Of a DNA stretch of 64,000 nt, positions 57,251 through 57,474 are shown piece by piece. The position numbers and the translations under genes are program-made. Position 1 is the stretch's first letter, and every line of letters starts with the position of its first letter. Below the pieces are notes generated by a model, which was not told the origin of the DNA, did not search any database, and saw only the letters and a program-made list of their open reading frames with translations. The stretch lies in NCBI RefSeq assembly GCF_057098645.1, contig NZ_CM169472.1; one strand, 5' to 3'.

Positions 57251-57474
57251 ACCTGAAAGTGAGTCCTTCTGGTGTTGTGAATGGTCCCGCGCTGGTCGTT
57301 TTCAGCGGCAAGAAAGTGCTTATTTATGACCGCTCACTCTAGACAATATTTATTAATAATCCAATTGTTGAACTCAGAGAATATGCATAAATCGGCAATT
57401 TTTTTATGTCGATGGGATGAGCCTGATTCGTTTGTAAAATCAGGCAAATTTTTGCAAAGGCGGATGGTCAGAAT

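Follow-up and report, generated by a model that had tools for sequence, protein, structure and literature searches.

An inverted repeat between ydcJ and opgD in Escherichia coli: a candidate U-tract-less 3' stem-loop within conserved opgD upstream DNA

Described boundary elements and the ydcJ-opgD spacer

Rho-dependent transcripts of E. coli end precisely after stable stem-loops that have no U-tract and are followed by a mild enrichment of C over G, and these stem-loops have been proposed to protect against 3' exonucleases (Dar and Sorek 2018, PMC6061677). The inverted repeat described here, which lies between the genes ydcJ and opgD, shares with them a stem-loop soon after a stop codon, the lack of a U-rich stretch, and more C than G just downstream. 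The neighboring gene opgD itself has a mapped 3' end of exactly that type, located 4 nt past a U-tract-less hairpin of -17.9 kcal/mol (MG1655 1498551). In contrast, the ydcJ hairpin is weaker (-10.7 kcal/mol), its C-over-G excess extends over at most 15 nt, and an A-tract precedes its stem, an arrangement atypical of Rho-dependent ends (Dar and Sorek 2018, PMC6061677). Intrinsic and bidirectional terminators offer another comparison, as they too are intergenic hairpins that follow a gene and are flanked on one side by an A-tract, which the other strand presents as a T-run. Unlike in those terminators, the U-tract here is non-contiguous on the plus strand and absent on the minus strand, there is a long loop of 7-9 nt, and only four of the eight plus-strand pairs are G-C (nine pairs form on the minus strand). 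The ydcH terminator 2 kb away passes both the consensus scan and the discriminant that are reported below, whereas the ydcJ hairpin fails both.

The outer arms of the repeat (GCCTGAT/ATCAGGC) and their 11-nt spacing are identical to those of a REP element at window positions 2162-2186 (compared over 2162-2190), and a site 3' of a gene is typical of REPs, which can stabilize upstream mRNA. We nevertheless rejected REP/BIME identity, as the hairpin is single-copy, lacks both the CTAC tail and the GC-rich inner stem, and matches only 2-3 of the 11 inner bases; in a further difference from REPs, one of its arms is old opgD-upstream sequence. With promoter-upstream regulator sites the region shares a location at -93 to -117 relative to the transcription start site of a weak, conserved promoter, a dyad with T-N11-A, a 10-bp-phased series of three G(T/C)AAA pentamers, and a pair of A-tract motifs spaced by about 50 bp, and we take it to resemble dyad operators, LysR-type T-N11-A boxes, OmpR-family repeats, and phased A-tracts. 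However, a LysR box typically lies at about -65, a position for which the hairpin is atypical, and one arm, like the pentamer pattern, is confined to the genus. The hairpin is unannotated but of a familiar kind. By analogy, it would work most like the Rho-associated protective stem-loops, and its likeness to intrinsic terminators is only superficial. Beyond annotation its significance is small: it would add one more U-tract-less stem-loop at an E. coli gene boundary and gives a cleaner map of the boundary between ydcJ and opgD.

The window, i.e., the whole 64,000-nucleotide stretch of DNA that was analyzed, is from Escherichia coli and is oriented opposite to MG1655. Over 321 bases around the hairpin it is 100% identical to strain O145 RM9872, and this segment was found in 5417 of 5426 complete E. 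coli genomes. The spacer between opgD and ydcJ (now annotated hglS) measures 224 nt and carries no annotation in MG1655 or in the other RefSeq records examined; the hairpin lies inside it, 30 nt past the ydcJ stop codon. On the plus strand, the repeat reads GCCTGATT (57421-57428), CGTTTGTAA (57429-57437), and AATCAGGC (57438-57445), followed by AAATTTTTG (57446-57454), exactly as the original prediction had described it (GCCTGATT-N9-AATCAGGC, then AAATTTTTG), and its placement between two minus-strand genes, opgD and ydcJ, was likewise borne out by the ORF coordinates and the annotation. Coordinates of all features are collected in Table 1.

Two small ORFs in the spacer were rejected as genes. 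The plus-strand ORF of 65 aa (57281-57478) contains the hairpin, is only 31 aa long in K-12, and has mostly non-silent substitutions. The minus-strand ORF of 37 aa with a TTG start (57334-57447) overlaps the opgD promoter, and its start region falls in the Escherichia-specific arm and has no counterpart in genera that retain the esterase gene discussed below.

The opgD promoter could be placed through published SMRT-Cappable-seq data, in which opgD (b1424) units starting at MG1655 1496778 comprise opgD alone, opgD-ydcH, and opgD-ydcH-rimL (Yan et al. 2018, PMC6131387). This position was transferred to the window through the collinear 224-nt spacer. The core promoter is near-invariant across Enterobacteriaceae and matches the sigma-70 consensus at only 7 of 12 positions, a weak match that a consensus scan misses.

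Table 1. Features of the ydcJ-opgD boundary, in window coordinates.
Feature	Position	Strand	Remarks
Inverted repeat/stem-loop	57421..57445	-	Minus-strand RNA GCCUGAUUU-UACAAAC-GAAUCAGGC; 9 pairs including one U.G; -10.7 kcal/mol
5' arm on the ydcJ/opgD sense strand (GCCTGATT)	57438..57445	-	Escherichia-specific half
3' arm on the sense strand (AATCAGGC)	57421..57428	-	Ancient half; opgD-upstream element
TTTACA box	57433..57438	-	Loop plus last base of 5' arm; conserved upstream element
T-run (AAATTTTTGCAAA on plus, TTTGCAAAAATTT on minus)	57446..57458	.	Invariant in all Escherichia species
Palindrome TTTGCAAA	57451-57458		Within the T-run segment
Direct repeat copy 1 (plus strand AAATCAGGCAAATTTTT)	57437..57453	.	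One hairpin arm plus T-run
Direct repeat copy 2 (plus strand AAATCGGCAATTTTTT)	57389..57404	.	No adjoining stem-loop; about 49-50 bp from copy 1
TCGACA box of conserved upstream module (sense ...TCCCATCGACATAAAA)	57408..57413	-	Kept in Escherichia, Citrobacter, Salmonella, and others
Hypervariable 16-nt spacer, ydcJ stop to conserved block	57459..57474	-	Most columns vary among 8 Escherichia sequences
opgD ORF	55595-57250	-
opgD start codon	57248..57250	-
ydcJ ORF (now hglS)	57475-58818	-	Pfam HGLS, E = 1.4e-161
ydcJ (hglS) stop codon	57475..57477	-
opgD transcription start site	57328	-	SMRT-Cappable-seq; MG1655 1496778, forward; b1424 units (PMC6131387 supplements)
opgD -10 hexamer TAGAGT (within TCTAGAGT)	57336..57341	-	8 nt upstream of mapped start site
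opgD -35 hexamer TTGGAT	57359..57364	-	17 nt from -10 hexamer
50-mer, opgD 5' UTR	57261-57310		4321 exact matches
50-mer, core promoter	57311-57360		5409 exact matches
50-mer	57361-57410		561 exact matches
50-mer, hairpin block	57411-57460		5401 exact matches; 5401 of 5416 genomes
50-mer, ydcJ stop region	57446-57495		35 exact matches

Folding and terminator tests on both strands

We generated predicted RNA folds for the repeat as read from either strand. In isolation, the stem-loop has a predicted energy of -9.1 kcal/mol as plus-strand RNA (8 bp, 9-nt loop, 4 G-C pairs) and of -10.7 kcal/mol as minus-strand RNA, where an extra U.G pair brings the stem to nine pairs and the loop to 7 nt. When 46 nt of context were folded, the plus-strand structure was unexceptional (z = -1.68, with 14 of 200 shuffles folding as well), whereas none of 200 shuffles matched the minus-strand structure (z = -3.85, with values of -3.85 to -6.0 obtained for this strand). 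The minus-strand fold is thus both the stabler and the more exceptional of the two, in keeping with a 3' stem-loop of ydcJ. We would like to note that perfect 8-bp inverted repeats with loops of 3-12 nt are not rare in the window: 29 are present, compared with 8.7 +/- 2.3 in dinucleotide shuffles, so that roughly one in three such repeats would be expected by chance and the class as a whole is enriched.

The hairpin is not a canonical intrinsic terminator on either strand. A consensus promoter and terminator scan called nothing in the spacer on either strand; the scan allows loops of 3-8 nt, a range that the 9-nt plus-strand loop exceeds. In the plus-strand tail (AAAUUUUUG), the sequence AAA separates the stem from T5, and the T-run begins only at +4, outside the 0-2 nt at which a U-tract is sought. 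The minus-strand tail (UCAUCCCAUCGACAU) holds no U-tract at all. A d'Aubenton-Carafa-type discriminant gave -67 for the plus strand and -53 for the minus strand, compared with +5, +20, and +36 for three of the window's canonical terminators, and the T-score was 0.80 on plus and 1.23 on minus. When 75 nt of plus-strand sequence are folded, the prediction has most of the U-run paired to an upstream GGGAU. Finally, a search of 56500-58500 with the Rfam 15 covariance models (E <= 10) retrieved no match overlapping 57421-57454.

The original prediction had taken the repeat for a terminator-like hairpin on the plus strand, with no upstream plus-strand gene, that might end an unannotated small transcript or, less ideally, serve ydcJ from the other strand. 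The hairpin itself is real, but the terminator label is poorly supported in view of the displaced T-run, the silent scan, and the discriminant of -67 on the plus strand. Reading the element from the minus strand as part of ydcJ is the better choice, although not as a true intrinsic terminator, as there is no U-tract. The remark on the missing plus-strand gene was correct, with both neighbors on the minus strand and the spacer unannotated, but the transcript supposed to terminate here found no support: the T-run is displaced, partly paired, and ancestral, and no convincing plus-strand promoter or gene lies upstream.

A plus-strand terminator would imply that a short unannotated RNA, or antisense transcription from the opgD promoter region, ends at the hairpin and UUUUU. 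Only on the plus strand does a T-run lie near the stem, and weak promoter-like pairs are found upstream (e.g., TTAATA-18-GAGAAT at 57353/57377, matching at 8 of 12 positions); consensus scans also miss the real opgD promoter with its 7 of 12. SMRT-Cappable-seq may miss short RNAs, so absence from that data set may be uninformative for a small RNA. Against this stand the three A residues between stem and T-run, the 9-nt loop, the stem energy of -9.1 kcal/mol and the unexceptional plus-strand fold, the predicted pairing of the U-run, and the lack of anything better than 8-of-12 pairs as an upstream promoter or of a gene to go with it. Neither Rfam nor the annotation has anything at the site on the plus strand, and the tables of Adams 2021, TERMITe, and Yan 2018, which are curated or size-selected lists, contain no 3' end at MG1655 14966xx. 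Furthermore, the T-run recurs without a stem 50 bp upstream as GGCAATTTTTTT, and in the C. freundii complex the inverted repeat is kept while the ydcJ stop codon and coding sequence take the place of the T-run.

Conservation and composite origin

Conservation within the species was measured by counting exact 50-mer matches in 5426 complete E. coli genomes (Table 1). By this measure, the hairpin block is an island of invariance on a par with the opgD core promoter and is bordered by polymorphic flanks. The 33-mer at 57417-57449 is present exactly in 5404 of these genomes and is single-copy in each. Across seven Escherichia species representatives, the repeat is perfect in six; the seventh has a single arm change (GCTTGATT) that leaves a G.U pair on the sense strand, a variant absent from the 5426 E. 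coli genomes. When the window is added to the seven representatives, only four positions vary over the whole of CTTTGCAAAAATTT-hairpin-TC(A/T)TCCCATCGACA.

One arm and the T-run also belong to a direct repeat, which on the sense strand consists of AAAAATTTGCCTGATTT (57453-57437) and AAAAAATTGCC-GATTT (57404-57389). Its local self-alignment score of 22 compares with 14.7 +/- 2.2 in shuffles, 4 of 200 of which reach 22. A 1-nt indel is the sole difference between the two copies in E. albertii and in two further species of the genus.

To place these features in a wider context, we compared 80 YdcJ-encoding loci from species representatives. In most genera, a carboxylesterase gene of about 1.5 kb (PF00135) lies between ydcJ and opgD. 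This gene is missing from Escherichia (spacer of 223-224 nt), the C. freundii complex (193 nt), UBA5654, Superficieibacter, and Pseudescherichia vulneris, and the hypervariable 16 nt at 57459-57474 are the remnant of the spacer between ydcJ and the esterase gene. Upstream of opgD, many genera share a module of the form TTTAC-N5-(A/T)(A/T)TC(A/G)G(G/T)C...TC(N)CATCGACA(N)AAAAT, in which TTTAC is near-invariant. At a fixed distance from TTTAC, one finds AATCAGGC, ATTCGGTC, AATCAGTC, or ATTCAGGC in Citrobacter, Salmonella, Pseudocitrobacter, Superficieibacter, and UBA5654, and this spacing holds with or without an inverted repeat.

In contrast, the left (5') arm GCCTGATT, at 57445-57438 on the sense strand, is confined to Escherichia. 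In genera with the esterase gene, the 8 nt at this position are unrelated to the arm and show no complementarity, and C. amalonaticus and C. sedlakii have a different, 11-nt longer segment at this site and no hairpin. In these two species, CTTTGCAAAAGTTG directly follows the esterase stop codon and is homologous to the E. coli T-run, so the T-run is older than the hairpin and GCAAAAATTT is ancestral. The alignments show a composite origin, in which one arm and the loop (TTTACA-N4-AATCAGGC) are an old opgD-upstream element and the other arm is an Escherichia-only addition. The repeat occurs where ydcJ directly abuts the TTTAC box, perfect in Escherichia and partial in the C. freundii complex, and its appearance coincides with ydcJ becoming the immediate upstream neighbor of the opgD regulatory region. 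The locus may thus be a case of element assembly, in which gene loss was followed by a new arm complementary to old promoter-upstream sequence and the resulting hairpin was frozen by regulatory overlap.

In the C. freundii complex, GAAT...ATTC stands in the same register as GATT...AATC in Escherichia, and five or six of the eight pairs can form (GAAT/ATTC plus one or two more). Over an 11-sequence alignment of the two clades, pairing in register reached 83.0% of cells on the sense strand and 87.5% on the antisense strand, compared with 5-61% in slid controls, and two pairs are altered on both sides between Escherichia and the C. freundii complex, each as a single between-clade event. This evidence for selection on the pairing itself is suggestive, the structure having been derived from one of the aligned sequences. 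We also considered whether G.U wobble pairs favor the sense strand, and the two percentages count against this. By minimum-energy folding, a small sense hairpin was obtained in two of four C. freundii-complex species, and an antisense hairpin in none. At the corresponding location, UBA5654, which also lacks the esterase gene, carries a canonical bidirectional terminator.

Weighing the explanations

Our best reading, which we hold tentatively, is that the repeat encodes a U-tract-less 3' stem-loop of the ydcJ mRNA, on the minus strand, frozen by its overlap with opgD upstream DNA. It would be a boundary element acting on the minus strand, which both genes share. Upon transcription of ydcJ, the RNA would fold 30 nt past the stop codon into a 9-bp stem-loop that, with no U-tract, would be unable to release RNA polymerase on its own. 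Instead, it would most likely set and protect the 3' end of the ydcJ mRNA after Rho termination and trimming by 3' exonucleases, and ydcJ transcription would be kept from reading into the opgD promoter. We infer that the hairpin would form in vivo, that ydcJ transcripts would end at it, and that Rho would take part. The near-total invariance of both arms would follow because arm and loop double as the opgD upstream module, which would block drift.

Several observations are consistent with a 3' stem-loop of ydcJ. A stable stem-loop lies downstream of the gene, and the sense sequence past the stem is U-poor and C-rich, with six C and one G in the first 15 nt of UCAUCCCAUCGACAU, as is the corresponding UCUGUUCCCAUCGACAU of the C. 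freundii complex. The C excess does not extend further: the 92 nt that lead to the opgD transcription start site contain 15 C and 15 G. The mapped opgD 3' end provides a local precedent, although its hairpin is considerably stabler, and the ydcJ stem is weak for a protective role by that standard. The A-tract ahead of the stem also speaks against a Rho-dependent end, and the pair counts show no strand preference. The Term-seq tables of Adams 2021 have no entry for ydcJ, opgD, or positions 14966xx-14968xx, and the SMRT-Cappable-seq data (PMC6131387) contain neither a unit with ydcJ (b1423) nor any start or end at 14966xx; ydcJ may not have been expressed under the conditions of either study. 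Additionally, the invariant loop, the flank TTTGCAAAAATTT, and the direct repeat point to a constraint at the DNA level beyond an RNA hairpin.

Such a constraint is the core of the strongest competitor, in which the palindrome and its flanks would be one or more protein-binding sites for the opgD promoter, spanning -85 to -135, with the RNA hairpin as a by-product. We regard this as a serious possibility, albeit on balance a doubtful one. For example, the dyad might be bound by a dimeric regulator, the phased repeats by a response regulator, or the phased A-tracts by a nucleoid protein. The weak core promoter suggests a need for an activator or an alternative sigma factor, and the right arm and loop, being conserved in genera that have no inverted repeat, would there act as DNA. 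The loop bases and the flank TTTGCAAAAATTT vary no more than the arms do, the block as a whole equals the core promoter in invariance, and this conservation is sequence-specific and sits upstream of a mapped promoter, as is expected of an operator. There are two direct copies and one inverted copy of the motif GCC(T)GATT, and two copies of AAAAA(T/A)TTGCC(T)GATTT stand some 50 bp, or about five helical turns, from each other. The plus strand reads GTAAA-N5-GCAAA-N5-GCAAA at 57434-57458, a series which we take to resemble the OmpR-family/CpxR pattern GTAAA-N5-GTAAA.

Nevertheless, a binding site fits less well in other respects. The arm centers are about 16-17 bp apart, which is awkward for a simple dimer, and the arms are GATT/AATC in Escherichia but GAAT/ATTC in the C. 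freundii complex, a complementary difference that fits a structure better than a fixed half-site. Neither the 10-bp-phased G(T/C)AAA pattern nor the left arm is conserved outside Escherichia. Resemblances to CpxR, OmpR, LysR, Cra, marbox, H-NS, and IHF-like sites were judged by eye, and none fits well. The box TTTAC-N5-AWTCRG is absent upstream of opgGH, where we found only an AATCAGG heptamer at chance level, and a box shared with opgGH was therefore rejected. No regulator was identified in the papers and annotations searched: the papers yielded nothing useful on the regulation of ydcJ, opgD, or mdoD, and opgD is not mentioned among the YdcI ChIP-exo targets described in PMC6237786.

We consider it unlikely, and less probable than a binding site, that the palindrome has no function of its own and persists by overlapping constrained promoter-upstream sequence. 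Its left arm would then be a chance product or, once the esterase gene had been deleted, the outcome of a template-switch (quasi-palindrome) mutation. The share of such repeats expected by chance, about one-third of those in the window, is compatible with an inert palindrome, as is the fact that each half overlaps independently conserved sequence, whether the TTTAC/AATCAGGC module, the direct repeat, or the ancestral TTTGCAAAA. The hairpin also fails as an intrinsic terminator on both strands, and the Adams 2021 and Yan 2018 tables record no transcript end at the site. What argues for a function is that the left arm does not vary in seven Escherichia species and some 5400 genomes, right beside 16 nt of hypervariable sequence, and that a second clade with the same gene adjacency shows pairing in the same register with different bases.

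The block could also be imagined as a dual-use element that encodes a plus-strand RNA of about 60-90 nt or serves as a platform for some regulator, which we consider improbable. The RNA would have its start near the opgD -35 region and its end at the hairpin and U5, and it would be antisense to the 3' UTR of ydcJ. As a platform, its three GCC(T)GATT motifs would couple ydcJ termination to opgD, and hence to the control of periplasmic glucans, in Escherichia only. The least supported of the rivals is the plus-strand terminator, which on the evidence given above we regard as very improbable.

A by-product of this work is the delimitation of a conserved opgD upstream module, consisting of TTTACA-N4-AATCAGGC...TCGACA and the repeated A-tract motif, directly beside the mapped opgD promoter.

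Gene loss in the ydcJ-opgD interval

The interval between ydcJ and opgD holds a carboxylesterase gene (PF00135) in most Enterobacteriaceae (loci L010-L083, from species representatives encoding YdcJ). Since only ~25-50 nt separate this gene from ydcJ, the two are apparently co-transcribed. The window lacks the carboxylesterase gene, the point of absence being 57459-57460, and the gene has been lost from Escherichia, the C. freundii complex, UBA5654, Superficieibacter, and P. vulneris. The spacers remaining after the loss are unequal in length (112-238 nt), which suggests that the gene was removed through separate deletion events.

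A plus-strand ORF covers the entire spacer left in the window. It is 65 aa long in 6 of 8 Escherichia sequences, with one more having 63 aa. In K-12 it is shortened to 31 aa, and most substitutions alter the amino acid; on these grounds the ORF is probably non-coding.

Promoter and repeats upstream of opgD

The opgD core promoter matches the sigma-70 consensus at only 7/12 positions and is nearly invariant from Escherichia through Klebsiella and Kosakonia. TCTAGAGT, together with a C immediately 5' of the -10 hexamer, may resemble sigma-S promoters. Further upstream lies a direct repeat with copies ~50 bp apart, near-perfect in E. albertii; the two copies may represent a recurring A-tract motif or one that binds protein. 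An imperfect inverted repeat (79% complementary, arms 17 nt apart) flanks the -35 region of the same promoter on both sides.

Terminator-like sites and other hairpins

The canonical intrinsic terminator 3' of ydcH, which served as a control for the terminator discriminant, scored positive. A weak terminator-like site, found by consensus scan, falls within the final ydcJ codons and overlaps the stop codon; 3 sites of this type were found vs 1.5 expected from shuffles, i.e., a close count. The hairpin 3' of the opgD stop codon (-17.9 kcal/mol) has no U-tract, with a U-run instead on its 5' side. Because the 'novel TTS' of opgD from SMRT-Cappable-seq (MG1655 1498551, i.e., window position 55555, minus strand) sits 4 nt past this stem, the opgD mRNA appears to have a protected 3' terminus of the Rho type. 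Elsewhere in the window, a BIME occupies 2112-2316.

Features of the window and of one comparison locus
Feature	Position	Strand	Sequence or note
BIME hairpin, two copies flanking the REPs	2112-2137; 2289-2316		AAATGGCGCC-TTTTACAG-CGCCATTT
BIME REP	2162-2190		
BIME inverted REP	~2226-2262		
ydcH terminator	55202-55222	minus	AAGCCGCC-agcca-GGCGGCUU then UUUUAAC
opgD-downstream hairpin	55559-55582	minus	CGGCACCU-ucuucggg-AGGUGCCG
Plus-strand ORF	57281-57478	plus	65 aa
opgD core promoter	57311-57364	minus	TTGGAT-17-TAGAGT, inside TCTAGAGT
Imperfect inverted repeat	57348-57361 / 57379-57392		14 nt
Direct repeat	57389-57404; 57437-57453		16/17 nt; sense AAAAA(T/A)TTGCC(T)GATTT
Weak terminator-like site	57486-57504	minus	6-bp stem then GUUUGCUUUA
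Carboxylesterase gene, example (comparison locus L022)	4394-5902		PF00135
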